A DNA stretch of 64,000 nt from Bacteroidales bacterium (GTDB taxonomy: Bacteria; Bacteroidota; Bacteroidia; Bacteroidales; VadinHA17): the NCBI GenBank assembly GCA_034004115.1, contig JAVEXG010000001.1:1153-65152 (forward strand), read 5' to 3'. Position 1 is the stretch's first letter. Every line of letters begins with the position of its first letter. The notes under the pieces were generated by a model. The model was not told the origin of the DNA. It searched no databases and saw nothing but the letters and a program-made list of their open reading frames with translations. Below are positions 4,075-61,327 of the stretch, piece by piece. Position numbers and translations under genes: made by a program.

Positions 4075-5109
<1,035 letters not shown>

Positions 5110-21779: not shown

Positions 21780-21853
21780 GCCGATGTAGCTCAGTTGGCC
21801 AGAGCAGCTGATTTGTAATCCGCAGGTCGGGGGTTCGAATCCCTTCATCGGCT
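21780..21853 (+). tRNA. tRNA-Thr (anticodon UGU)
   Basis: Hand-folded cloverleaf. Acceptor GCCGATG/CATCGGC, D arm GCTC..GAGC, anticodon loop TTTGTAA, T arm GGGGG-TTCGAAT-CCCTT. One U-C mismatch in the anticodon stem. Confidence 0.9.
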
Positions 21854-21900
21854 CTTGAAAGAGTTGCATTTGTATGTCTTGGGAGATATACTCTGTTTAA

Positions 21901-21983
21901 GGGGAGATACCAAAGTGGCCAACTGGGGCAGACTGTAAATCTGCTGGCTGATGCCTTCGTAGGTTCGAATCCTGCTCTCCCCA
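21901..21983 (+). tRNA. tRNA-Tyr (anticodon GUA), long variable arm
   Basis: Acceptor GGGGAGA/TCTCCCC, anticodon stem-loop GCAGA-CTGTAAA-TCTGC, T loop TTCGAAT. Confidence 0.92.
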
Positions 21984-22051
21984 CTTAAACGGAGAAACCG
22001 CATCTAGTACAGATTGTATTGTACTGATATGGAACTCTGCAGATGATATTA

Positions 22052-22124
22052 AGCGGGAGTAGCTCAGTTGGTAGAGCATTAGCCTTCCAAGCTAAGGGTC
22101 GCGGTTTCGAGTACCGTCTCCCGC
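22052..22124 (+). tRNA. tRNA-Gly (anticodon UCC)
   Basis: Acceptor GCGGGAG/CTCCCGC, anticodon stem-loop TTAGC-CTTCCAA-GCTAA, T loop TTCGAGT. Confidence 0.92.
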
Positions 22125-22136
22125 TCACTTTTTTGA

Positions 22137-22209
22137 GGCCAGAGTAGCTCAGGGGTAGAGCACTTCCTTGGTAAGGAAGGGGTCGGGGGTTCAATTCCCC
22201 CCTCCGGCT
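22137..22209 (+). tRNA. tRNA-Thr (anticodon GGU), slightly irregular fold
   Basis: Anticodon stem-loop CTTCC-TTGGTAA-GGAAG, D arm GCTC..GAGC, T arm GGGGG-TTCAATT-CCCCC. The acceptor GCCAGAG/CTCCGGC has an A-C mismatch, and the C7 run leaves one extra C at the T-stem/acceptor junction. Confidence 0.8.
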
Positions 22210-22269
22210 CAACGAAACAATGATGACAAAACTGATATAAATAAACTTAAATTTAATAAGCTTGGAGTT

Positions 22270-23457
<1,188 letters not shown>

Positions 23458-23476
23458 GAGTTTTGGATATATCAGT

Positions 23477-23507
23477 GCAGCATCATTCTCGTAATGATGC
23501 TGCTTTG
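23477..23507 (+). terminator. hairpin after tuf (weak terminator or processing signal)
   Basis: 11-bp stem GCAGCATCATT / AATGATGCTGC with a 5-nt loop, followed only by TTTG. tRNA-Trp begins 7 nt later, so read-through or processing is likely. Confidence 0.45.
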
Positions 23508-23513
23508 TCCCAC

Positions 23514-23586
23514 ACGGGTGTAGCTCAGTTGGTAGAGCACTGGTCTCCAAAACCAGGTGTCGGGAGTTCGAGTCTCTCCTCCCGTG
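23514..23586 (+). tRNA. tRNA-Trp (anticodon CCA)
   Basis: Anticodon stem-loop CTGGT-CTCCAAA-ACCAG, T arm GGGAG-TTCGAGT-CTCTC, acceptor ACGGGTG/CTCCCGT with one U-U mismatch. Confidence 0.88.
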
Positions 23587-29600: not shown

Positions 29601-30456
29601 CACCGACAAAAAGAAAAATGACAGCATAAAGCAACTCCTTCATAACTATATAATCAAGTACAAGGAGATTGACGGTATCTTCAAGCGCAAGAAGTATAAC
29701 ATCACAATAGGGGATGAACTTCCTGCAGGAATTGTACGTCTGGCTAAGGTTTACATAGCCAAGAAACGCAAGGTGAAAGTAGGCGACAAGATGGCCGGCC
29801 GTCACGGGAACAAGGGTATTGTGGCGAAGATTGTTCGCCAGGAAGATATGCCGTTCCTTGAGGATGGCACCCCTGTCGATATCGTACTTAACCCGCTTGG
29901 CGTTCCTTCGAGGATGAACCTCGGACAGATCTATGAGACGGTCCTTGGATGGGCAGGACAAAAGCTTGGCCTTCAGTTCTCTACACCTATTTTCGACGGT
30001 GCCACGATTGAACAGATAACCGAATACACCGAAAAGGCAAAACTTCCACGATATGGCAAGACTTACCTTTACGACGGTGGTACCGGTGAGAGGTTCGACC
30101 AGCCCGCAACAGTTGGTGTGATCTACATGCTTAAGCTGGGACATATGGTTGATGACAAGATGCATGCCCGTTCAATTGGGCCTTACTCCCTCATCACTCA
30201 GCAGCCCCTTGGCGGAAAAGCACAGTTCGGAGGACAGCGTTTCGGAGAAATGGAAGTCTGGGCTCTCGAAGCATTCGGCGCCGCCCATATTCTTCAGGAG
30301 ATACTTACAATTAAGTCGGACGATGTTATCGGCCGTGCAAAGGCTTATGAGTCAATAGTAAAGGGTGAACCGATGCCTCAGCCAGGTATACCCGAATCAC
30401 TGAACGTACTGTTGCACGAGTTGAGAGGACTGGGACTGAGCGTCATACTTGACTGA
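26647..30456 (+). CDS. rpoB: DNA-directed RNA polymerase subunit beta
   Basis: 1269 aa with unmistakable RpoB motifs (e.g. ...[14 protein letters not shown]..., ...[10 protein letters not shown]...). Confidence 0.99.
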
Positions 30457-30502
30457 CCTTCCTCTTTATTATTTTAATTAAAGGACAAATAAATTACAGT
30501 AT

Positions 30503-33500
30503 ATGTCATTCAGAAGAGATAACAAAACAAAAACAAGTTACTCAAAGATTTCTATTGGTCTCGCTTCACCGGAAGAGATTCTCGATCGTTCAAGCGGCGA
30601 GGTTCTGAAACCTGAGACAATCAACTACAGGACCTACAAGCCAGAGCGTGACGGACTCTTCTGCGAAAGGATCTTCGGACCGGTTAAGGATTACGAATGC
30701 CACTGCGGAAAATATAAAAGGATAAGATACAAGGGGATTGTGTGCGACCGCTGCGGTGTTGAGGTCACTGAAAAGAAAGTCCGCCGTGAGAGAATGGGAC
30801 ATATATCGCTGGTGGTTCCGATAGCCCACATTTGGTACTTCCGCTCACTGCCCAACAAGATCGGTTACCTCCTGGGCCTTCCTACCAAAAAGCTCGATTC
30901 AATTATCTACTACGAAAGATATGTTGTAATCAACCCGGGTATCAAGGCTGCCGATGGCATCAAATACCTCGATTTCCTTACAGAAGAGGAATACCTTGAA
31001 ATAACTGAATCACTTCCCAAGGAGAACCTCTATCTTGAGGATACCCATCCCGACAAGTTCGTTGCCGATATGGGAGCTGACGCTCTTTATAAACTGCTTT
31101 GCAGAATCGATCTTGATGAGCTGTCATATTCCCTTCGTCACAGGGCTAATACCGAGACTTCCCAGCAGCGCAAGAATGAGGCACTGAAAAGGCTTCAGGT
31201 TGTCGAGGCTTTCAGGGATTCAAAGAATGTGAACAAGCCTGAGTGGATGATAATAAAGGTGGTTCCGGTAATTCCGCCTGAACTGAGACCTCTTGTACCT
31301 CTTGACGGAGGCCGTTTTGCAACAAGCGACCTTAACGACCTTTACAGAAGGGTCATCATCAGAAATAACCGTCTTAAGCGACTGATTGAGATCAAGGCTC
31401 CGGAAGTGATCCTCAGAAATGAAAAAAGGATGCTTCAGGAAGCAGTCGACTCATTATTCGACAACTCCAGAAAGGCAAATGCCGTCAAGACTGACGCCAA
31501 CCGTCCTCTTAAATCGCTTAGCGACAGTCTTAAAGGAAAACAGGGCAGGTTCCGTCAGAACCTCCTTGGAAAAAGGGTTGACTACTCCGCACGTTCGGTT
31601 ATTGTGGTCGGACCGGAACTCGATCTTCACGAATGCGGTCTGCCAAAAGACATGGCTGCTGAGCTATACAAACCTTTCATAATAAGAAAACTGATTGAGC
31701 GCGGAATTGTCAAAACCGTCAAATCAGCCAAGAAAATTGTTGATCGCAAGGACCCGGTGGTATGGGATATCCTCGAGAACGTTCTCAAGGGACACCCTGT
31801 AATGCTTAACCGTGCCCCCACTCTTCACAGACTGGGCATCCAGGCCTTCCAGCCGAAACTTATCGAAGGAAAGGCCATCCAGCTGCACCCGCTCGTATGT
31901 ACCGCATTCAACGCCGACTTCGACGGTGACCAGATGGCTGTTCACCTGCCGCTCGGAAATGCTGCCGTACTTGAGGCACAGATGCTGATGCTTGCATCGC
32001 ATAATATCCTTAACCCCGCTAACGGAGCTCCGATAACCGTTCCTTCACAGGACATGGTTCTCGGCCTGTATTATATTACTAAGGGAAGGAAAAGCACTCC
32101 CGAGGATAAGGTCAGAGGTGAAGGACTTACATTTTATTCACCTGAAGAGGTCAATATTGCCCATAATGAAAAGAAAATAGACCTTCATGCCTATATTAAG
32201 GTGAAAGTTAACGACAGGGTTGACGGACAGCTTGTTAACCACCTGGTGGAAACCACCGTGGGAAGGGTTATCTTCAACCAGTTTGTCCCGGAAGAGGTAG
32301 GTTTTATAAATGAGATCCTTACAAAAAAATCACTAAGGGACATTATCGGCAGGGTTCTGAAATTATCAGGCACTGCAAAAACTGCCGCTTTCCTCGATGC
32401 CATCAAGAACCTTGGGTTCAATTCGGCATTCCGCGGAGGTCTTTCATTCAACCTCGATGATGTGATCATCCCCGAGGAAAAAACGAAATTCGTAACCGAA
32501 GGCTATGAACAGGTTGAGGAAGTGCTGAATAACTACAGCATGGGGTTCATAACCAACAATGAACGATATAATCAGATTATTGATATCTGGACACATGTCA
32601 ATGCCCGACTGACACAGTCGCTGATGAAACAGCTGTCAACCGACAAGCAAGGTTTCAATTCAGTATTCATGATGCTCGACTCCGGCGCAAGGGGATCGAA
32701 GGAACAGATACGCCAGCTTTCCGGGATGAGGGGACTTATGGCAAAACCGCAGAAATCAGGTGCCTCAGGTTCTGAAATCATCGAAAACCCGATTCTCTCC
32801 AACTTCAAGGAGGGCCTGTCGGTTCTGGAGTACTTCATTTCAACTCACGGTGCCCGTAAAGGTCTTGCCGATACAGCTCTCAAGACAGCTGACGCCGGCT
32901 ACCTGACACGCCGTCTGGTCGATGTTTCGCAGGATGTAATTATTAACGAGGAAGACTGCGGTACCCTTAGAGGCCTTGTGGCAACTGCCATCAAGAAAAA
33001 CGAGGAAGTCGTTGAGTCGCTCTACGAAAGAATTCTCGGGCGCACAACTGTCCACGATGTGTTCCATCCGCTTACCGGAGAACTTATAGTTGAAGCCGGT
33101 CAGGAACTTACTGAAGATCTGGCGAAAAAGATAGAAGATTCTCCTATCGAGCAGGTTGAAATCCGCTCAGTGCTGACATGCGAATCGAAAAAGGGTGTTT
33201 GTGCAAAATGCTACGGCCGAAACCTTGCTACCGGCAGAATGGTACAGAAAGGTGAAGCAACAGGTGTTATCGCCGCCCAGAGTATCGGTGAACCAGGTAC
33301 CCAGCTTACACTCCGTACTTTCCACGTTGGAGGTACTGCATCAAATATTACTACTGAATCGCGCCTTGTTGCCAGGTACAGCGGTATTGCCGAGATTGAA
33401 GAACTCAGATCGGTCCCCAAAAAGGATACAGAAAAGGGAGAAGTTGATATAGTAATCGGTCGTCTTGCAGAAATGAGAATAATAGACAAGAAGACAGGAA

Positions 33501-34795
33501 TTGCACTTACAACCCATACAATTCCCTATGGCTCGAGATTATACATCAAACCCGGGCAGGAAGTTGAAAAAGGAAAACTGATATGCGAATGGGATCCGTT
33601 CAACGCTGTAATTATTTCTGAACTCGCAGGAAAAGTTGGTTACGAGCACCTTATCGAAGGTATAACCTTCAGGGAGGAATCTGATGAACAGACCGGTTTT
33701 AAGGAAAAGGTTATCATAGAGAGCAGGGACAAGACCAAAAACCCTGCTATCAAGATACTTGGTCCCGACAACGAAGAACTCAGGATTTATAACCTGCCTG
33801 TCGGCGCTCATCTTGTTATGGAAGCAGGAAAAAGGGCAGAGGCCGGTGAGGTGCTTGCCAAGATACCAAGGGCTGTGGGAAAATCGGGCGATATAACCGG
33901 AGGTCTGCCGCGAGTTACGGAATTATTCGAGGCACGTAATCCCTCCAACCCCGCTATCGTCTCTGAAATCGATGGAGAGGTTACTTTCGGAAAAATCAAG
34001 AGGGGAAACAGGGAGATTGTTATCAAGTCAAAAACCGATGAGATAAAGAAATACCTTGTTCCGCTTTCAAAACAGATACTTGTTCAGGAAAACGACTATG
34101 TGAAAGCCGGTGTTCCTCTTTCCGATGGTGCTATCACGCCGTCGGACATTCTGGCCATCAAGGGCCCGACAAAGGTTCAGGAATATATCGTGAATGAAAT
34201 TCAGGAGGTGTACAGGCTTCAGGGTGTGAAGATCAATGACAAACATTTTGAGATCATTGTCCGCCAGATGATGAGAAAGGTCGAGATAGTTGATCCGGGT
34301 GATACTAAATTTCTTGAACGCCAGATTGTCGACAAACTTGAATTCATGGATGAGAACGACTGGATATATGGCAAGAAATATATTGTCGAATCAGGCGATT
34401 CCCAGACCCTTCGTCCGGGTATGATTGTGACAGCCAGAAAACTAAGGGATGAGAACTCGATCCTGAAGCGTCGCGACCTAAGGGTTGTTGAAGCAAGGGA
34501 TGCCGTTCCGGCCACGTCAAACCAGGTCCTGCAGGGTATTACAAGGGCAGCTCTTCAGACAAACAGCTTCTTCTCGGCAGCCTCCTTCCAGGAGACCACC
34601 AAGGTGCTTAACGAAGCGGCTATCCTCGGTAAGATCGACAAGCTTGAAGGATTGAAGGAGAACGTGATCGTCGGTCACCTTATACCTGCCGGTACAGGTC
34701 AGCGCCAGTACAACAGTATAATAGTCGGATCGCTCGAAGATCTGGAAAATCTCACTGAAGCACAGGCTGAAACAGTATCGGAAGCAAGGAAGTAA
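30503..34795 (+). CDS. rpoC: DNA-directed RNA polymerase subunit beta'
   Basis: 1430 aa. Zinc-binding [23 protein letters not shown] and the catalytic NADFDGDQM motif. Confidence 0.99.
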
Positions 34796-41591: not shown

Positions 41592-42722
41592 ATGATCAGG
41601 ATAACAGCAGACAATAAGATCCCGTTCCTGAAAGGGGTTCTGGAACCCTTTGCCCGGATTACCTATCTTCCGGGCAGTCAGTTTGACAGAGATGTCATAA
41701 TGGATTCTGACGCACTCCTTGTGCGAACCCGGACAAAGTGCAGCTCTGATCTTCTTTCCGGCACCAGGGTGCGGTTCATCGGCACTGCCACAATCGGATT
41801 CGATCATATTGATACAGGTTTCTGCAATGCAAACAATATCCGCTGGACAAATGCCCCCGGATGCAATTCCTCTTCCGTAATGCAGTATATTGCTGCTGCA
41901 CTGATGAGGATTTCTTCAGAATCGGGGCTCTCACTGAGCAGATTAACTATCGGAATTATCGGCGTCGGTAATGTTGGATCGAAGGTTCAGAAGCTGGCCC
42001 GGACGCTCGGCATGAAGGTTCTGCTGAATGACCCTCCGCGGCAAAGAAAGGAAAAGCAGGATATTTTCGTCAGCATTGAACAGGTACTTGAAGAATCAGA
42101 TATTATCACATTGCATGTTCCCCTGAATACCGGCGGAAAGGATAATACCTTCCACCTGATTGACGCGAATACTCTTGGCAAGGTGAAAAAAGGATCATGG
42201 CTGATTAACTCCTCCAGGGGAGAGGTTGTTGAAGCTGACGCCCTTAAGGAAGCTCTGACCGGTGAACGTATTGCAGGAGCTGTCCTGGATGTCTGGGAAA
42301 AGGAGCCTGAGATTGATATCCCTCTCATGCACATGGCTTTCCTGGCCACTCCTCACATCGCGGGTTATTCAGCCGATGGCAAAGCCAACGGCACCTCAAT
42401 GGTTGTGAATGAACTCTGCAGGTATTTTGATCTTCCCCTTAATGACTGGTTCCCGTCAGAAGTTCCTGAGCCGGCAGACCCGGTGCTTGTCATTGAATGT
42501 CATGGGAAAAGCCTTGAGGAGATAGCCGGAAGAGCCGTAAGCCATTCATATAATATAATGGCAGACGACGTCAGGCTGAGATTCGACCCTTCACGTTTTG
42601 AAAAGGAGAGAGAAAACTATCCTCTCCGGCGTGAATTTCCCAGCTACTCGATTGAACTGAGAGACGGAACGGAAGAGGCCAGAGCACTTATTTCCTCGCT
42701 GGGTTTCAGACTCATTGGCTGA
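41592..42722 (+). CDS. pdxB: 4-phosphoerythronate dehydrogenase
   Basis: 376 aa. PdxB-like N-terminus (ADNKIPF...DALLVRTRTK). NAD-binding GIIGVGNVGSKV. D-2-hydroxyacid dehydrogenase catalytic pattern (...SSRGEVV..., ...TPHIAGYS). Confidence 0.85.
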   Translation: MIRITADNKIPFLKGVLEPFARITYLPGSQFDRDVIMDSDALLVRTRTKCSSDLLSGTRVRFIGTATIGFDHIDTGFCNANNIRWTNAPGCNSSSVMQYIAAALMRISSESGLSLSRLTIGIIGVGNVGSKVQKLARTLGMKVLLNDPPRQRKEKQDIFVSIEQVLEESDIITLHVPLNTGGKDNTFHLIDANTLGKVKKGSWLINSSRGEVVEADALKEALTGERIAGAVLDVWEKEPEIDIPLMHMAFLATPHIAGYSADGKANGTSMVVNELCRYFDLPLNDWFPSEVPEPADPVLVIECHGKSLEEIAGRAVSHSYNIMADDVRLRFDPSRFEKERENYPLRREFPSYSIELRDGTEEARALISSLGFRLIG

Positions 42723-42794: not shown

Positions 42795-45700
42795 TTATAA
42801 CGTTGCCTGAGTCGTCTTTGCGGTCTTTTTTACCGCTTTTCCCGACTTAGCATACTCCTTAACCTGGAAGGCAAAAGCCTGAAGCCTTGTGTCGAGCGAT
42901 ACTGAATCCTGACCGTCGTAGGCTATGTTGATGAAGGGAATGTTGTCATGGTCCTTTCTGAATGAATCGCTAAGGGAAGCAACCAGTGTTCCCGGCATGC
43001 AGGTAAATGGCAGTATTGCCGCCATCCCTGAAACACCCCTTTCTGCAAGTGCCACCGAGGTTCCGAGAGCAATCGGCGGGTCGCCGTCGTAAAATTCACT
43101 TACATATTTATTCGAAAGCCTCAGCATGTCGTGCAGCGAAACATCCTTTTCGTGATCGGTTAATTTCTTTATTCCTCTTGTCAGCATCCTCGAGATCACT
43201 TCCTGGCCAACTCCCTGGATCTTCGATTTTATGATACCCTTTTTGTCATTCTTCCATCTGCTGTCGCGGGTGAACCTGTGGGTTGAGTAAACAATCCATT
43301 CGGAGAACGGTCCGACCAGAACTTCAAGGCCAAGTTCTTCCAGTCGGTTTGAGATGTTCCCGTTGCATCCTGCATTGTCGCGCATGAAGATCTCACCTAC
43401 AATCCCCACAACAGGCCTTCTTACGCTCCTGTCAACCGGTATTGCAACAAAGTCGCCGGCTATTTCCGCCAGCACCCGGTGAAGTCCGGAGGATCCCTTT
43501 TCGATGCACCTCTCGAGGCGGTGTATTGCATCCTCGTATAGCCTGTCGGTTTCACCCCTGTTGATCTCGTACGGCCTGATCTCCCTGTGTATTTTCCGGA
43601 TAAAATCAGCGGCAAGGAATCCTTTCCATGCCCTTATCCTGAACTTCTGTCCGTGCTCACCGGCCACATCCTGATAGGATGTGTCATTTGACGGTGTTAT
43701 GAGTTCAGCCTTTTCAAAACCGAGACGGTCAAACAATATCCTGTGGAACTGGTTGTACTGTCCGAACCGGCACGGACCATTGTGGTCGGGCATGAAAAAG
43801 CACATTTTTGACGGGTCGGCACCGGGCTCACTGAGTTTTTTGATAAAGCTCCCGGTAGTGCATATCATCGGGAAACACTCTTTGGATGAGGTGTATTTTC
43901 TTCCGATAGCAATTTCTTCTTCGGTCTGTTTCGGAAGAACCTCTGACTGAACTCCTATGCTTCGGGCAGCAGCCGCAACCATATAGGCGCCATCATTCAT
44001 GTAGGGAAGGTAGAGCACCCTGTCTCTGGATGGCGATGTAAGTCCGGGCCTTGGCCTGAACACCACGGCTTCCTTCCTTTCATTCTGTTCCGATCCTTTC
44101 AGGCTGTCGAGAAATGCCTCTATACGTGTTACCATACCTGCATCGGCCGAATGCTCATCGACCTCAAGATGCAGAAAGGGCTTTCCCTTGAGTTCTTCAG
44201 TGATATAGTGCCAGATAAATGAATCGGGACCGCATCTGAAATTACTGATATAGACCGCATACAGACCTTCTGTTTTTGCAACATGCTGGGCTGCGGCAAC
44301 AATTTTCTGTCCGTTTGGCCAGTACATGTTCCTGTAATTGTCAAAAATATTATAGGGAGTCAGGTCGAGCATGTCAAGGGGAACGGGCATCACATCCTGG
44401 GCTATCAGCTTCTCAACCAGATTCAGGTTCAGGTGAGGATCAGTGCCGTTATAGGGGCGGCCCAGTAACACAACCGGCCGGCAGTTGTCGGGAATCCTGC
44501 TTAATGCTTCCTTTCCAAACGAAACCAGGCTCTTTTCAAACGTTATCTGAGCCTGGTCGGCTTCATAGATTGCGTTCCTGATCTCTTTCCTGCCTATCCC
44601 GAACCTGGAACCGAAATATTGAGTCATCTCCCTGACAAGAGCTCTTTCAAAAAACCTGAAATGCAGGGTTGGAACCAGAAGCTTTGATTCATCCACCTTG
44701 CCCCTCAGAGCGGCCTTTACCATGAAAGGATAGGTTTGTATCCATGGACAGTTGCAGTTAAAGGTCTTGTTTCCTTCCCTGAATTTGGCATTTACAATGA
44801 AAGGAAGGAAAATGTAATCAGCACCTTTTTCGTACAGATCCATCACATGACCATGCATCAGCTCAACCGGAAGGCATATTTCGGTTGTGATTGTTTCAAT
44901 TGCTTTCGTTACAAGCTGTTTGTCCGACTCTTTCGACAGTATCACCCTGAACCCCAGCTTCTCAAAAAACGTGCGCCAGAAGGGGAACTGCTGGTAAAAA
45001 ACCATCAGGGCTCTTGGTATCCCGATTGTCGGACCATTGCCGCTGCCTTCCTTATATCCTTCCATTAGCATCTCGGTCCGCTTCCTGAACAGGTTGGGGA
45101 TGTTGTTTTCTTCCTTTTTACGGCTGTCGGTCTCATATTTCTCACACCTGCCGCCATAGAAAAGGGATTTCTCCTCCCCGGCGATCTTTACTTTTCTTAT
45201 TTCACAGTTGTTTGCGCAGCTCTTGCAAACGAACCTGCTTACTTCATATTCAACATTACTGATCCCAAAACCCTTGAATTTTGTCTTGCCCCCGTTCTTC
45301 ATCTCTTTTTGGGCAAGAATAGCGGCCCCGATGGCGCCGGTCACATCAAAATGAGGCGGTATCGTGATCTTTTTACCTGTTACATGCTCAAAGGCCGCCA
45401 CAACAGCCTTGTTGTTTGTTACACCTCCCTGGAAAAAGATCTTGTTCCCGATCCTCCTGTCGCCTACTACCTTTTCGAGATAATTATACACTATCGAATA
45501 GGCAAGGCCTCCTACCATATTGTCATTTCTGGCACCCTTCTGTACGCAGGTATTAAGGTCCGATTCCATGAAAACAGTACACCTGTCACCCAGTTTTACG
45601 GGGTTTTCGGCTTTCAGCGCCATCGACCCGAATTCCTCGATGATCTTTATGTTCAGCTTCTCAGCCTGCTCCTCAAGAAACGATCCGGTGCCGGCAGCGC

Positions 45701-47069
45701 ACACCTTGTTCATCTCAAAGTCGACCACAACTCCGTTCTCAATACTGATAAACTTTGAATCCTGTCCGCCTATCTCAAAAATCGTGTCTACAGTCGGATC
45801 ATAGTCAATTGCGGCGGTAGCCTGAGCTGTGATTTCATTTCGGATTGTATCAGCTCCGATAAAGTCTCCTGTCAGATACCGGCCCGATCCGGTTGTTCCT
45901 GCCCCCAGTACTTCAACGTCATTGCCTGTTTCTTCATATATTTCCGAGATGCCTCTCCGGATAGCCTCCAGCGGCTTGCCAGCCGTCGGCAGGTATCTCC
46001 GTGAAATTACCCTGTGATCCGGATCGATCAAAACAACGTTGGTGCTCAGAGAACCGACATCCACGCCCAGGTAAACAGGTAAGTTACTGGTACCGTTCTT
46101 TTTGAAATGAACTTTTTTGTCATAAACCGCCTCCGACTCCACAAGTGGAGGAAGACTCCTGAAATTCCCGGAAGCTCTGTCCAGATAGGCATCAAGGTCA
46201 TTCAGCCCCCTGAAGTGATTCATCTCTAAATTGTTGGAACAGGCATGCATGACTGCTCCTATGGCTCCCATGGAGGCATGATGATCAGGTATTATCAATT
46301 CATCCCCGTTCAGGGAAAGTATATCCCTGAATGCCCTCACCATGCCGGCGTTTGCCGCCACTCCTCCGGAAAATATGACAGGTTTTTTGAATTCCCTGCT
46401 CTTTGCAACATTGCTCCTGAAATTTCTTGCAAGGGCAAAACACAATCCTGCCACAATATCGTGAAGAGGTGTGGCAATCTGCTGATGATGAATCATGTCG
46501 CTCTTTGCAAACACACTGCATCTTCCTGCAATACGGGGCGGATCAACCGATTTTAGTGCCATCTCCCCGAACTCCTTCTCGATTGCAACTCCTATCCTTC
46601 GTGCCTGCTGGTCAAGAAAAGACCCCGTACCTGCTGCACAAATGCTGTTCATTTCAAAATCCACAAGCCTTGAGTGCCCGTTTGCAGGATCCTTTTCAAG
46701 CAGGATCAGCTTTGAATCCTCTCCGCCGATCTCGATCACGGTCCTGGCTTCGGGATATAATGTTCCGGCAGAGGTCGCCTGAGCAATGATCTCGTTTACA
46801 AATATCCCGCCTATCAGACTTGTTGCCAGCCTGCCTCCTGTACCAGTAACTGCTGTACCGGCAAAGAGATCAGGAGGGTATAGTTTGAAAATGGCATCCA
46901 GCCTGTCGCGAAGAACATTGAACGGCCTGCCATGAACATAATCGTAGAAATCCTCAATTATTTTGAATCGGCCGTCGAGGATGACGGTGTTCAGAGATAC
47001 AGAACCAATGTCCAATCCCAAAAAAAATCCCTTGTTTTCAGGATTGAACAGGGAGCCTTCTTCAGCCAT
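42795..47069 (-). CDS. 1424-aa fusion: two BcrAD/BadFG-type (HgdC-like) activase ATPase modules + Cys4 linker + large 2-hydroxyacyl-CoA-dehydratase-like/DUF2229-type C-terminal region
   Basis: Two ASKHA modules. The first has GLDIGSVSLN...EIGGEDSK...ICAAGTGSFLDQQA...GRCSVFAKSD. The second has GVDVGSLSTN...EIGGQDSK...VCAAGTGSFLEEQA...DRCTVFMESD. These are followed by CKSCANNCEIRKVKIAGEEKSLFYGGRCEKYE and about 780 further residues. Confidence 0.85.
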   Translation of the reverse strand: MAEEGSLFNPENKGFFLGLDIGSVSLNTVILDGRFKIIEDFYDYVHGRPFNVLRDRLDAIFKLYPPDLFAGTAVTGTGGRLATSLIGGIFVNEIIAQATSAGTLYPEARTVIEIGGEDSKLILLEKDPANGHSRLVDFEMNSICAAGTGSFLDQQARRIGVAIEKEFGEMALKSVDPPRIAGRCSVFAKSDMIHHQQIATPLHDIVAGLCFALARNFRSNVAKSREFKKPVIFSGGVAANAGMVRAFRDILSLNGDELIIPDHHASMGAIGAVMHACSNNLEMNHFRGLNDLDAYLDRASGNFRSLPPLVESEAVYDKKVHFKKNGTSNLPVYLGVDVGSLSTNVVLIDPDHRVISRRYLPTAGKPLEAIRRGISEIYEETGNDVEVLGAGTTGSGRYLTGDFIGADTIRNEITAQATAAIDYDPTVDTIFEIGGQDSKFISIENGVVVDFEMNKVCAAGTGSFLEEQAEKLNIKIIEEFGSMALKAENPVKLGDRCTVFMESDLNTCVQKGARNDNMVGGLAYSIVYNYLEKVVGDRRIGNKIFFQGGVTNNKAVVAAFEHVTGKKITIPPHFDVTGAIGAAILAQKEMKNGGKTKFKGFGISNVEYEVSRFVCKSCANNCEIRKVKIAGEEKSLFYGGRCEKYETDSRKKEENNIPNLFRKRTEMLMEGYKEGSGNGPTIGIPRALMVFYQQFPFWRTFFEKLGFRVILSKESDKQLVTKAIETITTEICLPVELMHGHVMDLYEKGADYIFLPFIVNAKFREGNKTFNCNCPWIQTYPFMVKAALRGKVDESKLLVPTLHFRFFERALVREMTQYFGSRFGIGRKEIRNAIYEADQAQITFEKSLVSFGKEALSRIPDNCRPVVLLGRPYNGTDPHLNLNLVEKLIAQDVMPVPLDMLDLTPYNIFDNYRNMYWPNGQKIVAAAQHVAKTEGLYAVYISNFRCGPDSFIWHYITEELKGKPFLHLEVDEHSADAGMVTRIEAFLDSLKGSEQNERKEAVVFRPRPGLTSPSRDRVLYLPYMNDGAYMVAAAARSIGVQSEVLPKQTEEEIAIGRKYTSSKECFPMICTTGSFIKKLSEPGADPSKMCFFMPDHNGPCRFGQYNQFHRILFDRLGFEKAELITPSNDTSYQDVAGEHGQKFRIRAWKGFLAADFIRKIHREIRPYEINRGETDRLYEDAIHRLERCIEKGSSGLHRVLAEIAGDFVAIPVDRSVRRPVVGIVGEIFMRDNAGCNGNISNRLEELGLEVLVGPFSEWIVYSTHRFTRDSRWKNDKKGIIKSKIQGVGQEVISRMLTRGIKKLTDHEKDVSLHDMLRLSNKYVSEFYDGDPPIALGTSVALAERGVSGMAAILPFTCMPGTLVASLSDSFRKDHDNIPFINIAYDGQDSVSLDTRLQAFAFQVKEYAKSGKAVKKTAKTTQATL

Positions 47070-47254: not shown

Positions 47255-47276
47255 AATTGTAACATATGTTACAATT
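47255..47276. promoter_or_regulatory. perfect 22-bp palindrome AATTGTAACATATGTTACAATT (candidate Crp/Fnr-family operator)
   Basis: The sequence is identical to its own reverse complement. It lies in the divergent spacer between the 1424-aa gene (start 47069) and the Crp/Fnr gene (47364), 3 nt upstream of a TAATTTTG -7 box. Confidence 0.55.
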
Positions 47277-47286: not shown

Positions 47287-47363
47287 AGGCAGATTTGTGC
47301 CTGATTTGCTTTCCCGGAAGACAAAACGGATAATCGGGACATCAGGCATTGACAGGAAAGAAA

Positions 47364-48035
47364 ATGGACTATACCTATCTTTTGAACACCCCAGTTTTCA
47401 GGGGCCTGGATATTGCTGAGATAATGTCGCTTATCTCTTCTACTCCATACAGGATCAGACGTTTCAATGCAGGGGCAATGATTTTCCAGAGCGGCGAGCC
47501 GGTGAATTCATTTGTAATGGTTATCAGTGGATCCGTAAAGGGCGAAATGACTGACTATTCGGGACGTGTACTTAAAATTGAAGAGATAAGAGAAGCGGGT
47601 TCTCTCGGAGCCGCTTTTCTCTTTGCCGGGAAGTCGGTTTTTCCGGTGAACGTAATTGCTGTTACCGATACGGAGCTTCTGACAATCGAGAAGAATGATT
47701 TTCTGAGGTTTCTGAAGTGGGATGACAGGATTCTTGCAAACTTCCTGGGAATGATTTCAAACAGGTCGGCATTTCTGAGCGAGAAGATAAAATTCCTGAA
47801 TTTCAAGACTATAAAAGGCAAACTGGCACAATACTTCCTTCAGATTTCCGGTCCCGGCGGTTCAACCGTCATGCTGACGATGACCCAGGCCGATCTCGCA
47901 GATTATTTTGGAGTTGCCCGTCCTTCGATTGCCAGGGTGGTGTCCGAAATGGAAAACGAAGGTATAATCAAGACCAGGGGGCGTTCCTTACGGATACTCG
48001 ACCGTGAAAGACTTGCCATCCTGACAAGGGAATAG
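47364..48035 (+). CDS. Crp/Fnr-family transcriptional regulator
   Basis: ATG at 47364 (the ORF-track TTG is at 47349). N-terminal cNMP-binding-like beta-roll. C-terminal HTH (QADLADYFGVARPSIARVVSEMENEGII). Confidence 0.9.
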   Translation: MDYTYLLNTPVFRGLDIAEIMSLISSTPYRIRRFNAGAMIFQSGEPVNSFVMVISGSVKGEMTDYSGRVLKIEEIREAGSLGAAFLFAGKSVFPVNVIAVTDTELLTIEKNDFLRFLKWDDRILANFLGMISNRSAFLSEKIKFLNFKTIKGKLAQYFLQISGPGGSTVMLTMTQADLADYFGVARPSIARVVSEMENEGIIKTRGRSLRILDRERLAILTRE

Positions 48036-48043
48036 GGGATTTG

Positions 48044-50116
48044 TCAGGAAGACCCTGTTGAATCGGGCAGTGTAATTGTAAAGCAGGCTCCTTCACCCTC
48101 GCGGCTTTCCACACTCATGGTTCCGCCGTTGATCTTCACGAGCTCATAGCAAAGTTTGATGCCAAACCCTGTACCTTTCTCATTCTCTGTTCCTGGTGTG
48201 CTCTCAATCTCACTGGCAGTAAACAGTTCCTTCTGCTTTTCCTCCGGAATACCGACTCCGTTGTCGCACACCTTTAGCGAGATCCCTTCGCGTGTATTTG
48301 ATTTGTCCTTCAAGAGAATGCTTATCCTTCCTCCCCTGGGAGTGTATTTCACTGCATTTGAAAGCAGGTTCCTGATTATGATGTCAAGCAGATCCTTGTC
48401 GAAAAAGGCTTTTGAGTTACCTATCTGGGTGAAATTGACCTTGATTGACTTCTTATCGGCAGTCTCCTTGAAAATGCTCAGGTTGGTGAGAATGATATCG
48501 GCAAGATCATGTTTACCGGGGGCATACCTGATCTTGTCTTCCTGTCCTCTTCCCCACACGAGCATGTTTTCAAGAAGGCTGATCACCTGCTGGGAGTATT
48601 CTATGCTTGCATCTGCAAAAGAATCATACTTCTCCTTATACTCCTCCTCCTTGAGAAGGTTGAGCATGTAAAGGATGTTAACCACCGGGCTCCTAAGGTC
48701 GTGGGCGATCACTGAAAAAATCTTGTTCTTCAGCTGTATTGTTTCCGAAAGCTTTTTGTTTTGCGCGGCTATCCTGATGTTCTGCTCCTCGATCTCTTCC
48801 TTGCGGGCAATAATCTCATGGGTCCGGTCATCGACGATTTTCTCGAGATGCCGGTTCAGGTACTCATGCTCTTTCTGCAGCTTCTCCTTCTCGGAATAGG
48901 CTTTTACCCATTTGTACAGGATCAGAACTGCCTGGATGAAAACAAACACAACAATAGCCTGGGTCAGTATGTATCCGGAAAAAACCGCCTGTTTTCCAAG
49001 CGATATCCTGACATCGTTTACAGCAGCTGCACCCAGCATGATGAATGTCAGAAAATAGAAGAAATCGATCAGATTCCCCCTGATTACCCCTTTTACCGAT
49101 TCAAAAAGTACAGTGGAGAACAGGATCACAAGCAGGGGATAAATTATAAAGGTCGCGTAACTGAAAACATCAACAGGAAATGCTATTGTAACTACCGCTG
49201 CGATGGCCAGGATTATTGTAACCCCCCGGGTAATTATCCTGAAGCACATTGAACGGTAGAGGTAAAGTGCAAACCAGTACCATCCGGCAAGGATTACGTA
49301 AAGCCCAAGGTATTCCCATCTCACTATCCAATCCCAGCTTATGTCCATGATGTTGTGGATCAAGAAATTGGATGTAAAGAGAGGTCTTATGGCAAGTCCG
49401 GTCACGGCAATGCTGAAAAAGGCCGTCTGCTTGTCCCTTGAGAAAATGACAAAAAAGAAGAAAAAGAGAAGTGAAAAGGCGAGGAGGAAACTCATTGATG
49501 ACCAGTCCTTTGCCCAGCTGGAGGCATAATCCTGCTGGATCTCGTTGAAGGTACCTATCTTCATTGGTATCCAGAACCCTCCCCTTCGGTGGTGAAAGTT
49601 GGAAACGTTTATAACGATTTCAATTGTGTCGGCATCCGGATTAAACCTGAAAAAGCGCCTTTCGTAATCAGGTTCGGTATAGTCTGCCGAAACACCCGGT
49701 ATGCCATTCCTGCCCATCTTTTTTCCGTCGACATATACTTCATAGGAGGAATCGAACACGGGCATGTCGACTGCCAGGGAGTTTCTGTAACCGGGCGGCA
49801 GCAGTATCCTTAAACGGTATGTGGCAAAGCCCTTTCCCGAAGGCTTCAGCGATTCAGTCCTGTAACTGGTCCAATAGGAGGGGACCTGGCCAAAAAGATC
49901 CGGAACGGGAGGATCAGCTAACTTGAAATCCCTGGGGACCAGTTTCTTCGACCAGTGGAACTCCCATTCGCCGTTAAGCTTGAATATGAATTTATTGCCT
50001 GCCGATTCCCTCAGGTCTATAATACCTCTGACAGCTGTGGGTTCAGCACCATAAGCCGGTGCCAGAAAATAAAAAAGCAGAAAGTATAGAAGAAAGGTAA
50101 GAGATGCTTTTTTCAT
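48044..50116 (-). CDS. sensor histidine kinase with 7TMR-DISM-type extracytoplasmic and 7-TM domains (no cognate response regulator nearby)
   Basis: 690 aa. Signal peptide, an extracytoplasmic domain of about 200 aa, and about 7 TM helices. H-box FSVIAHDLRSP, N-box LLSNAVKYT, G1 DNGVGI, G2 GTGFGI. Confidence 0.9.
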   Translation of the reverse strand: MKKASLTFLLYFLLFYFLAPAYGAEPTAVRGIIDLRESAGNKFIFKLNGEWEFHWSKKLVPRDFKLADPPVPDLFGQVPSYWTSYRTESLKPSGKGFATYRLRILLPPGYRNSLAVDMPVFDSSYEVYVDGKKMGRNGIPGVSADYTEPDYERRFFRFNPDADTIEIVINVSNFHHRRGGFWIPMKIGTFNEIQQDYASSWAKDWSSMSFLLAFSLLFFFFFVIFSRDKQTAFFSIAVTGLAIRPLFTSNFLIHNIMDISWDWIVRWEYLGLYVILAGWYWFALYLYRSMCFRIITRGVTIILAIAAVVTIAFPVDVFSYATFIIYPLLVILFSTVLFESVKGVIRGNLIDFFYFLTFIMLGAAAVNDVRISLGKQAVFSGYILTQAIVVFVFIQAVLILYKWVKAYSEKEKLQKEHEYLNRHLEKIVDDRTHEIIARKEEIEEQNIRIAAQNKKLSETIQLKNKIFSVIAHDLRSPVVNILYMLNLLKEEEYKEKYDSFADASIEYSQQVISLLENMLVWGRGQEDKIRYAPGKHDLADIILTNLSIFKETADKKSIKVNFTQIGNSKAFFDKDLLDIIIRNLLSNAVKYTPRGGRISILLKDKSNTREGISLKVCDNGVGIPEEKQKELFTASEIESTPGTENEKGTGFGIKLCYELVKINGGTMSVESREGEGACFTITLPDSTGSS

Positions 50117-58035: not shown

Positions 58036-58836
58036 ATGAAAGGATTGATTTTCAGCGTTAAACGGTATTCGGTTCATGATGGTCCGGGAATAAGGGTGAC
58101 CTTCTTCATGAAGGGCTGTCCTCTTTCATGCTGGTGGTGCCATAACCCGGAGGGGATATCACCGGAACAACAAACTGTTGTGCAGACGAGGAAGGTAGGG
58201 GATAAGGAATTTCACCGGGATGAACAGGTGGGTAAACTTTATTCAACCGGGGATATTCTTGAGATACTTGAACGGGAACGCATCTTCATAGAGCAATCGG
58301 GTGGGGGAGTTACGTTCTCAGGCGGTGAACCGATGATGCAGTATGAATTCCTTCTGGAGGCGCTGAAGGCCTGCAGGGAAAAAGGCTTCAATACTGCTGT
58401 TGATACATCGGGTTATTCCTCCGCTGAGAGTTTCATCTCAATAATGCCATTCACCGATGTTTTCCTGTTCGACCTGAAACATCCCGACGATGCACGTCAT
58501 GTTGAATATACCGGAGTTTCCAATATCCGTATTCTTGAGAATCTTAAGATGATTATCGACAGTGGAAAGAATGTCATGATAAGGATTCCCGTTATCCCGG
58601 GGAAAAATGATGATGAAGCAACTCTTAATTCGATACGGAGTTTACTGATGAATCTTAAAAGAGACAATCTTGTTAAGGTAAGCCTTCTTCCATTTCACAG
58701 GATCGGAATTGCGAAATACAATAAATTCGGCCTGCCATACAGGATGAATGACACAGTGCCTCCGTCATCACAAAGGATGAACGATTTGAAGGAGTTTTTT
58801 GAGGTAACTGGTATTAAAGTGAAAGTTGGAGGGTAA
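58036..58836 (+). CDS. glycyl-radical enzyme activating enzyme (radical SAM), short PflA-like form
   Basis: 266 aa. Glycine-rich VHDGPGIR, CPLSCWWC (CxxxCxxC) and the GGEP SAM motif. It has four Cys in total, so no auxiliary-cluster cysteines. Confidence 0.93.
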   Translation: MKGLIFSVKRYSVHDGPGIRVTFFMKGCPLSCWWCHNPEGISPEQQTVVQTRKVGDKEFHRDEQVGKLYSTGDILEILERERIFIEQSGGGVTFSGGEPMMQYEFLLEALKACREKGFNTAVDTSGYSSAESFISIMPFTDVFLFDLKHPDDARHVEYTGVSNIRILENLKMIIDSGKNVMIRIPVIPGKNDDEATLNSIRSLLMNLKRDNLVKVSLLPFHRIGIAKYNKFGLPYRMNDTVPPSSQRMNDLKEFFEVTGIKVKVGG

Positions 58837-58850
58837 TTAGCCATAGGGTA

Positions 58851-58920
58851 TTTACCCCCACCCCCAGGGGGGCTTAAAAAGGAATACGGATTTAAAGTCC
58901 CCCTTGGGGGATTTAGGGGT
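58851..58920. repeat. C5/G5 hairpin repeat element between activase and glycyl-radical enzyme genes
   Basis: CCCCCACCCCCAGGGGGG (58855-58872), CCCCCTTGGGGG (58899-58910) and GGGG (58916-58919). The CCCCCAGGGGGG and CCCCCTTGGGG sub-motifs occur in the same order as in 40250-40356. Confidence 0.7.
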
Positions 58921-58957
58921 TGAGCAATCGGGAAAAGTAATTAATCGAACTAAAATT

Positions 58958-61327
58958 ATGATACTTACAGAACGGGTAAAGAGACTGAGAGAGCAGAGCC
59001 TTAATGCGGTCGAAAAAATAACCGCCGAAAGAGCGCTGCTGATTACTGCATTCTATAAAAGCGATGAAGCGAGGGAGGTTTCAGCCCCGGTGCGCAGGGC
59101 CAGGGCTTTTGAGTATCTGCTCAGGAACAAAGCCATCTGCATAAACGAAGGAGAACTGATTGTCGGTGAACGCGGCCCAGAACCCAAGGCTACCCCGACC
59201 TATCCTGAAATAAGCCTTCACTCACTTGAGGATCTGGAGATACTCGATTCGAGGAAAAAGGTGTTTTTCAGGGTCGGTGAGGATGTGAAAAGGATCTACC
59301 GCGACGAGATAATTCCCTACTGGAAGGGCAAAAGCAACCGCGACAGGATCATGGGGCTGATGACACCTGAATGGATGAAAGCCTATAATGCAGGCATCTT
59401 TACCGAGTTCCAGGAACAGCGCGCCCCCGGCCACACCGTGCTTGGAGGGAGAATGTTCCGGACAGGCTTCCTTCAGCTTAAGGAAGAAATATGGGAAAGT
59501 CTTTCCTCACTCGATTATCTTAATGATTTCGAAGCTTTCGACAAGGCGGAGGAACTGAAGGCTATGGATATCGCATGCGATGCCATAATCATGTATGCCG
59601 GCAGGCACGCCGATGAGCTTGAACGTCTCGCCGGTTCAGAGAAGGACAGCACGAGGAAGAAAGAACTGGTTTCAATGGCTGCCGTCTGCCGGAGGGTGCC
59701 GGCACATGCTCCTGAAACGGTGCATGAAATGCTCCAGCACTACTGGTTCATTCACCTTGGTGTCATAACCGAACTGAATCCATGGGATTCATTCAACCCC
59801 GGCAGGCTTGACCAGCATCTTTTCCCCGTTTATAAAAAGGAAAAAGAGTCCGGATCCCTTACCGATGAAGAGCTGAGTGATCTTCTGGGGTGTTTCTGGG
59901 TGAAATTCAATAATCATCCATCACCACCGAAAATGGGTGTCACCGCCAGCGAAAGCAACACCTACACCGACTTCTGCCTGATAAACCTTGGAGGAGTAAA
60001 ACCCGACGGATCGGACGCCGTCAATGAAATGTCATACATCCTTCTCGATGTGATAAGAGAAATGAGAATACTCCAGCCCAGCTCAATGGTACAGATAAGC
60101 AGGAAAAGTCCCGACAGGTTCATTCACAAGGCCCTTGACATTATAAAAACAGGATTTGGCCAGCCTTCCTGCTTCAATACTGACGCTATAATCCAGGAAC
60201 TGCTCAGGCAGGGCAAAAACATAGTGGATGCCCGCAACGGAGGCGCTTCAGGATGCGTCGAAACAGGTGCTTTCGGGACGGAGGCTTACTGGCTGACAGG
60301 TTATTTCAACCTTACAAAGATACTTGAGGTAACCCTTAACAACGGGTTCGATAGGAGAACAGGTCTGCAGATAGGACCGGAGACAGGCCTGGCTTCAGGT
60401 TTTAAGACATTTGACGATCTGGTTGAGGCTTACAGGATCCAGGTAAGTTATTTCGCCGGCATAAAGATAAGGGGCAACAATGTGATAGAGAAAACCTTTG
60501 CCAGATGGCTGCCTGTGCCTTTCCTTTCACTCCTTGTTGAGGACTGCATTGCAAAAGGCAGGGATTACAACGGGGGAGGCGCAAGATACAACACCACCTA
60601 TATTCAGGGGGTTGGTCTGGGTTCACTGACGGATATCCTTACTTCAATAAGGTTTAATGTCTACGACAGGAAAAACTACACCTGGGATGAACTGCAGAAA
60701 GCTGTTGATGACAACTTTGAAGGGCACGACCAGTTGAGATACGACCTTATTTATAATACACCCAAATACGGCAACGACGATGATTATGCCGATCAGCAGG
60801 CTGTTACAGTGTTTGAGATCTACTATGATGCTGTTAACGGTAAACCATGCTCCAGGGGCGGAGTGCACCGGATAAATATGCTGCCCACTACATCTCACGT
60901 CTATTTCGGCGGTGTAACCGGTGCCACGGCTGACGGAAGGAAAGCTTTCACTCCACTGTCGGAAGGGATATCCCCGAGTCAGGGTGTGGACAGCAACGGC
61001 CCCACCTCGGTGATAAAATCGGCATCAAAGATCGACCACCTGCGTACCGGAGGCACTTTGCTCAACCAGAAGTTTTCCCCTTCGTTCTTTGAGGATGAAG
61101 AGAGCTACAGCTGTCTTACATCGCTGATAAGGAGTTACTTCAGCCTCGACGGTCATCATATCCAGTTCAATGTGGTCAATGCCGAAACACTCCGTGAAGC
61201 CCAGAAGCATCCTGAATTGTACAGGGACCTTATTGTGAGGGTAGCCGGCTACAGCGATTACTTCAACGATCTCGGGGAGGATCTTCAGAACGAGATAATC
61301 CTCCGGACCGAGCACGAATCAGTCTGA
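58958..61327 (+). CDS. glycyl-radical enzyme of the dehydratase/eliminase class, probable trans-4-hydroxy-L-proline dehydratase (HypD-like)
   Basis: ATG at 58958 gives 789 aa; the ORF-track TTG at 58904 lies inside the repeat. Glycyl radical motif RVAGYS. Single-Cys loop GCVE, not the CC of pyruvate formate-lyase. Residues H159, D277, S333, F339, C433, E435, Y449, T644/645 and G764 line up one position below the HypD catalytic residues as I recall them. Confidence 0.9.
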   Translation: MILTERVKRLREQSLNAVEKITAERALLITAFYKSDEAREVSAPVRRARAFEYLLRNKAICINEGELIVGERGPEPKATPTYPEISLHSLEDLEILDSRKKVFFRVGEDVKRIYRDEIIPYWKGKSNRDRIMGLMTPEWMKAYNAGIFTEFQEQRAPGHTVLGGRMFRTGFLQLKEEIWESLSSLDYLNDFEAFDKAEELKAMDIACDAIIMYAGRHADELERLAGSEKDSTRKKELVSMAAVCRRVPAHAPETVHEMLQHYWFIHLGVITELNPWDSFNPGRLDQHLFPVYKKEKESGSLTDEELSDLLGCFWVKFNNHPSPPKMGVTASESNTYTDFCLINLGGVKPDGSDAVNEMSYILLDVIREMRILQPSSMVQISRKSPDRFIHKALDIIKTGFGQPSCFNTDAIIQELLRQGKNIVDARNGGASGCVETGAFGTEAYWLTGYFNLTKILEVTLNNGFDRRTGLQIGPETGLASGFKTFDDLVEAYRIQVSYFAGIKIRGNNVIEKTFARWLPVPFLSLLVEDCIAKGRDYNGGGARYNTTYIQGVGLGSLTDILTSIRFNVYDRKNYTWDELQKAVDDNFEGHDQLRYDLIYNTPKYGNDDDYADQQAVTVFEIYYDAVNGKPCSRGGVHRINMLPTTSHVYFGGVTGATADGRKAFTPLSEGISPSQGVDSNGPTSVIKSASKIDHLRTGGTLLNQKFSPSFFEDEESYSCLTSLIRSYFSLDGHHIQFNVVNAETLREAQKHPELYRDLIVRVAGYSDYFNDLGEDLQNEIILRTEHESV

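Follow-up and report, generated by a model that had tools for sequence, protein, structure and literature searches.

One gene in a 64,000-nucleotide stretch of DNA from a Bacteroidales bacterium (lineage VadinHA17; GenBank assembly GCA_034004115.1, contig JAVEXG010000001.1, positions 1,153 to 65,152 of the forward strand; the whole stretch is called the window below) encodes a protein of 1424 amino acids (aa) that, judging by its sequence, is most likely a single-chain ether-lipid synthase of the PlsA/PlsR-Ger family, whose substrate would be the sn-1 ester in glycerophospholipids of the membrane. PlsA/PlsR and Ger are anaerobic ether-lipid synthases of the benzoyl-coenzyme A (CoA) reductase / 2-hydroxyacyl-CoA dehydratase superfamily, oxygen-sensitive iron-sulfur enzymes driven by ATP that replace an ester bond of a phospholipid by an ether bond. 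Several features by which a family member is recognised are present: two PF01869 activase modules with their cysteines, a DUF2229 domain, a PlsR-like second acceptor module, and full-length collinearity with the PlsA of Enterococcus faecalis. The gene had been described in an original prediction as a double activase fused to a dehydratase-like acceptor, of unknown function and with no known substrate. That part of the description is not supported, as the same BcrAD_BadFG, BcrAD_BadFG, DUF2229, HGD-D architecture occurs in PlsA/PlsR and Ger, whose lipid substrates are defined; a characterised relative with a defined substrate had been named there as the finding that would speak against it, and at family level PlsA/PlsR and Ger are such relatives. 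The gene and its parts are as follows.

42795..47069, minus strand: whole gene, predicted PlsA/Ger-family fused ether-lipid synthase, 1424 aa with an ATG start; order activase, activase, Cys4, Red1, Red2
46233..47024, minus strand: activase module 1, BcrAD_BadFG/HgdC type, residues 16-279; putative cluster ligands C144 and C184
45312..46070, minus strand: activase module 2, residues 334-586; putative cluster ligands C457 and C497
45144..45227, minus strand: Cys4 segment, C615-x2-C618-x3-C622...C642, a small beta-hairpin linker recognised from sequence and conservation
44100..45029, minus strand: acceptor module Red1, residues 681-990, DUF2229 with an HGD-D-like tail; C732, C774 and C946; counterpart of the C-terminal third of PlsA
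42858..44012, minus strand: acceptor module Red2, the PlsR equivalent, residues 1020-1404; C1065, C1100 and C1357

The domain anatomy was established by profile searches. BcrAD_BadFG (PF01869) matched two stretches, at about residues 16-279 and 334-586 (Pfam, E 1.5e-77 overall), the better of which, 334-586, spans profile positions 1-271 of 271, and the NCBIfam model TIGR00241, 'acyl-CoA dehydratase activase', also matched twice; the two tandem activase modules described earlier on one 1424-aa polypeptide are thus borne out by the open reading frame, Pfam and NCBIfam alike. DUF2229 (PF09989) was found at residues 681-901 with an E value of 8.7e-63 (212 bits, cutoff 29.4). HGD-D (PF06050) stayed below threshold: its match at residues 912-990 scored 24.8 bits, where 28.4 are required, and took in only profile positions 262-342 of 342, so that of the domain families proposed for a profile check BcrAD_BadFG and DUF2229 passed and HGD-D did not. 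The equivalog models for the BcrA/D and BzdQ subunits scored far under their cutoffs (170 vs 578, 118 vs 313 and 108 vs 380 bits). A chance open reading frame or a pseudogene was ruled out by the 1424 codons and by Bacteroidales orthologues that are 77-94% identical. Homologues carry the database names 'acyl-CoA dehydratase activase' and 'CoA-substrate-specific enzyme activase'.

Each activase module retains both cysteines that had been read as cluster ligands: C144 in CAAGTG and C184 in CSVFAKSD in the first, C457 in CAAGTG and C497 in CTVFMESD in the second. In searches of the Protein Data Bank (PDB), module 1 matched HadI (4EHT; phmmer, E 3.5e-31), its cysteine motifs aligning with KCAAGTG and CTVFAES, and module 2 matched MbdQ (9GAI_D, E 8e-32) and HgdC (1HUX, E 3.7e-31), solved activators whose equivalent motifs also line up. 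The C-x2-C-x3-C...C segment was located at C615, C618, C622 and C642 and is followed by 782 residues, in line with the roughly 780 first reported. A cysteine inventory of the C-terminal half gave C732, C774, C946, C1065, C1100 and C1357. Together these make 14 cysteines, four in the activase modules, four in the linker and six in the acceptor half; none of them varies among 36 diverse relatives, and E. faecalis PlsA has them all. The four of the Cys4 segment are kept in both the E. faecalis and the Clostridium PlsA. This segment, which is predicted as short strands with a predicted local distance difference test (pLDDT) value of 60-70, may form a site that binds a metal or an Fe-S cluster.

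Structure prediction placed both halves of the protein in the superfamily. The model of residues 1-600 (pLDDT 85.7, predicted template modelling score (pTM) 0.76) matched MbdQ, HadI, HgdC and DCCP-R in Foldseek with template modelling (TM) scores of 0.81-0.91, and activase module 1 matched HadI, HgdC and MbdQ at 0.83-0.91. Residues 596-1424 were modelled with AlphaFold2 on 70 homologues (pLDDT 80, pTM 0.82); the top Foldseek matches in the PDB, each with a probability of 1.00, were the double-cubane cluster protein (DCCP) entry 6ENO, BzdNO 8S2R, DCCP 7YYL, the 2-hydroxyisocaproyl-CoA dehydratase HadB 3O3O, and MbdO/N 9GAI. Together with the DUF2229 match, these bear out the dehydratase/DUF2229-type fold that had been assigned to the C-terminal region. 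Target-normalised TM scores were 0.41-0.47 for one module, at which DCCP, Had and Bzd are indistinguishable. By profile-profile comparison (hhalign), Red1 (676-1000) and Red2 (1015-1410) are paralogous (E 4e-6), and their cysteines pair by position: C732 with C1065, C774 with C1100, and C946 with C1357. Sequence profiles of the acceptor modules returned only noise from the PDB and no solved dehydratase, and their cysteines are therefore putative counterparts of the cluster ligands in solved dehydratases.

The primers listed in Table S6 of PMC12838417 gave access to validated references for comparison: their gene-specific portions were searched for as exact DNA matches. The E. faecalis primer led to a locus (L003) with a plsA open reading frame of 4248 bp, equal to the published length (PMC9702350), which encodes 1415 aa and has a TetR gene upstream, in line with the reported EF1326-EF1327. 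The C. perfringens primer matched two Clostridium sp. genomes and not the C. perfringens representative. It led to a plsA-plsR operon (975 and 420 aa) in Clostridium sp. LIBA-8841 (L002), where the reverse primer was not found; the Clostridium PlsA and PlsR used here are therefore a close proxy for those of C. perfringens, validated by identity ranges alone. The two proteins of this locus share 50% and 41% identity with E. faecalis PlsA, and since these values fall within the ranges published for the comparison with C. perfringens PlsA and PlsR (48-55% and 41-42%; PMC12838417), the proxy was considered a good one.

The window protein aligned with E. faecalis PlsA from end to end, with 28.6% identity over 1426 columns (residues 18-1385 with 6-1385, E 1e-157). 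Its residues 1-990 correspond to Clostridium PlsA (29% identity, E 1e-123) and residues 1030-1404 to Clostridium PlsR (19% identity, E 2e-20, BLASTP). DUF2229 lies at an equal position in the E. faecalis and Clostridium PlsA, and the Pfam architecture of the window protein and E. faecalis PlsA is alike (two PF01869, PF09989 and a weak PF06050), a layout reported for the latter as 'architecture 1' (supplement of 10.1101/2022.04.21.487849).

The functions of these reference proteins have been described. In C. perfringens, plsA-plsR produces 1-alk-1'-enyl lipids from diacyl glycerophospholipids (Jackson et al. 2021, cited after PMC9702350 and PMC10191378). A single plsA gene of 4.2-4.9 kb codes for both parts in E. 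faecalis, L. cremoris and B. longum subsp. suis, and recombinant E. coli with single-gene PlsA yields phosphatidylethanolamine (PE) plasmalogens (PMC12838417); single-gene PlsA and PlsA/PlsR both turn diacyl glycerophospholipids into plasmalogens (PMC9702350, PMC12838417). Ger ('modified PlsA', glycerol ester reductase) of Thermotoga maritima and Desulfatibacillum alkenivorans converts the sn-1 ester to an alkyl ether and gave 1-O-alkyl glycerol ethers in E. coli, anaerobically only; its layout is PF01869-PF01869-PF09989 followed by small PF06050/PF09989 hits (PMC13159169). For the ester chemistry, two successive one-electron reductions, protonation and dehydration have been proposed (PMC8788747).

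For the window protein, this homology leads us to infer the following clusters, electron donor, substrate and product. The two N-terminal activase modules would pair within the chain as a pseudo-dimer, with C144/C184 and C457/C497 binding a single [4Fe-4S] cluster between them. This cluster would receive electrons from ferredoxin or flavodoxin, and ATP binding and hydrolysis would push a low-potential electron into the acceptor half, a putative pseudo-heterodimer of the paralogous, HgdA/B-like Red1 and Red2 with three cysteine ligands each. The substrate bound by this half would be a membrane glycerophospholipid, probably PE, whose sn-1 acyl ester carbonyl would undergo two one-electron reductions, protonation and dehydration, giving either a plasmalogen (1-O-alk-1'-enyl lipid) or a saturated 1-O-alkyl ether of the kind that Ger makes. 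The earlier placing of the protein in the class of self-contained fusions with ATP-driven low-potential electron transfer appears sound in the light of its domain anatomy and folds. The vinyl ether would be somewhat favoured over the alkyl ether, because within this order PE plasmalogens are known from Bacteroides thetaiotaomicron; they are not produced by B. fragilis, B. ovatus or B. vulgatus (PMC10056535).

A search with the acceptor half reached 4733 representatives of clusters formed at 50% identity when the threshold was E<=1e-3, and 979 when it was E<=1e-30; most of the best were fusions of about 1400 aa. The 150 nearest representatives were 26-59% identical to the window protein over the acceptor half and 39-64% in the best full-length BLAST alignments. 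Relatives within its clade come from Bacteroidales (58-94%), Syntrophaceae/Desulfobacterota (47-49%) and Brocadiia/Planctomycetota (44%), with further members in Aerophobetes, Sumerlaeota and Aminicenantes. A deep split separates the validated Firmicutes PlsA group from this much larger clade of Bacteroidota, Desulfobacterota, Planctomycetota and candidate phyla. Conservation is higher in the activase half than in the acceptor half, with 58-61% vs 38-41% identity to the Desulfobacterota homologues, whose genes stand alone beside housekeeping operons.

Family members in these groups are already on record. PlsA/PlsR homologues have been counted in about 15% of Bacteroidota genomes (PMC10191378), Ger homologues have been reported in Bacteroidetes/Bacteroidota (supplement of 10.1101/2022.04.21.487849), and Ger or 'modified PlsA' homologues have been discussed in the groups that make up the clade of the window protein (PMC8788747, PMC11868695). 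No Ger protein of Thermotoga or Desulfatibacillum was named among 30 cluster representatives, whose labels were those of metagenome-assembled genomes from Bacteroidales, Aerophobetes, Brocadiia, Planctomycetota, Deltaproteobacteria, Sumerlaeota and Aminicenantes, and a screen of the representatives for thermophile composition reached no named Thermotogae protein. Against plasmids, tblastn gave only matches at the distance of PlsA, with 24-27% identity over most of the query and at most 32% in partial matches (Listeria, Fusobacterium, Collinsella and others). A literature search for a Bacteroides locus tag of such a gene found no papers.

The surroundings of the gene were then compared with those of related loci (L013, L014, L015/L016, L019 and L020). 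The Crp/Fnr regulator had been noted before as the only neighbour, which holds only in part: it is present, but a convergent pdxB lies downstream of the gene and a sensor kinase beyond the regulator.

47349..48035, plus strand: Crp/Fnr-family regulator gene, divergent upstream neighbour, with a cNMP-binding domain and HTH_Crp_2 (Pfam)
47255..47276, no strand assigned: perfect 22-bp palindrome with the halves AATTGTAACAT and ATGTTACAATT, an inverted repeat in the divergent promoter region
41592..42722, plus strand: pdxB (4-phosphoerythronate dehydrogenase, DUF3410), convergent and downstream, passing the NCBIfam equivalog cutoff
48044..50116, minus strand: 7TMR-DISM sensor histidine kinase, beyond the regulator, with no adjacent response regulator
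58036..61327, plus strand: radical-SAM activase, then an 807-aa glycyl-radical enzyme resembling pyruvate formate-lyase (PFL)

The translation of the Crp/Fnr-family gene is without any cysteine, and the regulator is therefore not an FNR-type Fe-S oxygen sensor. A Crp-family gene is likewise adjacent in L013 and L015/L016 and stands one gene away in L014, and the pairing of this gene with the 7TMR-DISM kinase is kept in L013, L014 and L015 despite differing outer flanks. The palindrome lies in the 279-bp divergent intergenic region, has the core TTGTAAC-N4-GTTACAA, and is unique within the 64-kb window, where 0.05 occurrences are expected by chance. Its half-sites are kept in L013 (5796-5813) and L014 (5103-5120), where only the central N4 differs, and L015 has a degenerate copy (4854-4871); in loci without an adjacent crp gene no convincing palindrome was found (none in L019, only a match with three mismatches in L020). 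This pattern suggests that the palindrome is a candidate operator of the neighbouring Crp-family regulator, and the plsA/ger-like gene is probably controlled by this divergent regulator through it.

In three different contexts a gene with a 2x[4Fe-4S] ferredoxin domain immediately precedes the plsA/ger-like gene and shares its strand (L014 5176-5895, L015/L016 4924-5823 and L020 4086-4697). Its product has 200-300 aa, with the 2x[4Fe-4S] domain at the N-terminus and a Cys-rich, AF_0155-like C-terminal part. In L014 the palindrome lies upstream of the ferredoxin-domain gene, which directly precedes the plsA-like gene. No such gene was found in the window (tblastn), L013 or L019. The arrangement suggests the ferredoxin as a candidate dedicated electron donor in part of the clade.

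The convergent pdxB is kept in the window, L013, L014 and L015, which probably reflects synteny without a functional link; PdxB was rejected as a pathway partner on account of its equivalog match, its DUF3410 domain and its orientation. As first noted, no CoA-transferase or acyl-CoA gene adjoins the gene: no CoA-transferase, ligase, acyl-CoA dehydrogenase or other acyl-CoA gene was found within about 6 kb, and such a lack of CoA-metabolism neighbours would be expected because the substrate is predicted to be a phospholipid. Rfam found only tRNAs in the window, and no riboswitch near the plsA/ger-like gene. The glycyl-radical enzyme and its activase point to an anaerobe as the source organism, which is consistent with the proposed function; in L015 and L020, too, the plsA-like gene has this pair in its vicinity. 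Elsewhere in the window, a tyrosine recombinase/integrase-family gene (20448-21335) stands immediately upstream of five tRNA genes (21780-23586), and the rpoB/rpoC region (26647-34795) follows the tRNA cluster.

Several observations weigh against the assignment of the window protein as an ether-lipid synthase of the PlsA/PlsR-Ger family. Its identity to validated PlsA is just 28-29%, falling to 19% over the PlsR-like module; for every one of the 150 nearest representatives, too, identity to E. faecalis PlsA is only 27-29%. In a neighbour-joining tree the window protein did not group with the validated PlsA clade (Firmicutes/Actinobacteria), and the E. faecalis and Clostridium PlsA were placed across a long internal branch from its clade. 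To our knowledge, the experimentally tested members all lie outside the Bacteroidales clade. No lipid-biosynthesis gene is adjacent to the plsA/ger-like gene, the plasmalogen producer B. thetaiotaomicron is tied to the window gene by their shared order alone, and relatedness to Ger is drawn solely from the taxonomy of the Desulfobacterota (47-49%) and Brocadiia (44%) relatives. PlsA and Ger are moreover not distinguishable by sequence at present (PMC13274423, PMC11868695).

The strongest alternative is that the protein is a Ger-type glycerol ester reductase which converts the sn-1 (perhaps also the sn-2) ester to a saturated alkyl ether and makes no plasmalogen. Since its nearest relatives outside the phylum are Desulfobacterota (Syntrophaceae) and Brocadiia (Planctomycetota), the window protein may be nearer to Ger than to PlsA; it lies outside the PlsA clade, and the groups of these relatives are known for alkyl ether lipids and are the source of the validated or proposed 'modified PlsA'/Ger proteins (PMC8788747, PMC13159169). 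However, the sole lipid data for the order, from B. thetaiotaomicron, are of PE plasmalogens and not alkyl ethers (PMC10056535), the Pfam layout fits E. faecalis PlsA and not the extended DUF2229/HGD-D patterns of Ger, those extra hits being marginal, and no sequence marker separates the two activities (PMC13274423). A Ger-type activity is on balance possible but the less likely outcome.

A related suggestion is that the Bacteroidales clade forms a functionally distinct PlsA/Ger branch, which would make saturated alkyl ethers or reduce esters in Bacteroidota-specific lipids rather than in PE. It is prompted by the Crp-family regulator with its conserved candidate operator and by the ferredoxin gene upstream in several relatives, and is considered rather unlikely. 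If it were true, the PlsA/Ger family would have, in the ferredoxin encoded alongside the enzyme, the first of its physiological electron donors to be identified.

Less likely still is the original reading of a self-contained ATP-driven reductase or dehydratase, here with a non-lipid substrate and with the Bacteroidales clade as a functionally distinct paralogue family inside the PlsA-like architecture. The deep split from validated PlsA, an acceptor half that diverges much faster than the activase half and the lack of adjacent lipid genes would all fit such an enzyme, and some genomes hold several PlsA-like homologues of unclear role (PMC13274423). Yet the whole chain is collinear with PlsA plus PlsR and retains the 14 cysteines, and every experimentally tested protein of the full architecture makes ether lipids. 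The gene is also monocistronic in housekeeping contexts in several phyla, which fits a modifier of membrane lipids and not an enzyme of a catabolic pathway.

A CoA thioester as substrate, with the protein as a fused 2-hydroxyacyl-CoA dehydratase or an enzyme of the benzoyl-CoA reductase type, as the database names, the fold matches to HadB, BzdNO and MbdON and a conserved neighbour of the 2-hydroxyacid-dehydrogenase family might suggest, is very unlikely, given that HGD-D falls under the Pfam cutoff and the benzoyl-CoA reductase subunit equivalogs far under theirs, that this dehydrogenase is the convergent PdxB with no CoA-transferase, ligase or acyl-CoA dehydrogenase nearby, and that the acceptor-module sequence profile matches no solved dehydratase. 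Equally improbable is a DCCP-like double-cubane reductase of small molecules fused to its own DCCP-R: 6ENO was the top Foldseek match of the acceptor half (E 4.6e-4) and the DCCP:DCCP-R complex 7YYL matched both halves of the protein, but the TM scores to DCCP, Had and Bzd are alike, and the six acceptor cysteines are divided three and three over two paralogous modules, whereas in DCCP six cysteines in one chain of about 420 residues hold the [8Fe-9S] cluster. The divided arrangement resembles that of the alpha/beta dehydratases and benzoyl-CoA reductases rather than DCCP.

The most likely assignment, a PlsA/PlsR-Ger-family ether-lipid synthase, would correct the misleading public label 'acyl-CoA dehydratase activase' and predicts ether lipids in the source Bacteroidales organism. 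Plasmalogens and alkyl ether lipids shape the membrane properties and oxidative-stress tolerance of anaerobes, and are of interest for gut microbe-host lipid signalling and as sediment ether-lipid biomarkers. Because earlier papers already describe the enzyme family, the chemistry and the occurrence in Bacteroidota, the window protein, an uncharacterised member, adds a member to the family and not a concept. New leads, of modest weight, are the depth of the split that sets its clade apart from validated PlsA, a candidate partner in the ferredoxin and a putative operator of the Crp type.

Of its closest known systems, the window protein resembles E. faecalis PlsA (EF1327; likewise those of L. 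cremoris and B. longum subsp. suis) in length (1424 against 1415 aa), order of parts, the set of 14 cysteines and a divergently transcribed regulator upstream; it differs in sequence, falls in a separate deep clade, and has a Crp-family regulator where E. faecalis has one of the TetR/AcrR type. C. perfringens PlsA-PlsR (CPE1194-1195) shares the cysteine set and, by inference, the chemistry, with PlsA and PlsR as the counterparts of residues 1-990 and 1030-1404, but consists of two polypeptides where the window protein is one fused chain. Ger (T. maritima Tmari_0479, D. alkenivorans SHJ90043), compared by its published description, is also a single chain with the two-activase and DUF2229 core; unlike the window protein it is reported to have extra small DUF2229/HGD-D hits in its C-terminal part, and the ether lipids reported for Bacteroides are of another kind than its saturated alkyl ethers. 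The separate-subunit systems, HgdAB/HadBC with HgdC/HadI, BzdNOPQ/MbdONPQ and DCCP:DCCP-R, have in common with the window protein a pair of ASKHA-fold ATPases with the bridging-cluster cysteine pair, and an acceptor fold with three cysteines per module. In contrast to them, the window protein is single-chain, carries an extra Cys4 linker, has no CoA-pathway neighbours and scores below the cutoffs of the family-specific hidden Markov models for HGD-D and the benzoyl-CoA reductase subunits, and its substrate would, by homology to PlsA and Ger, be a phospholipid ester.

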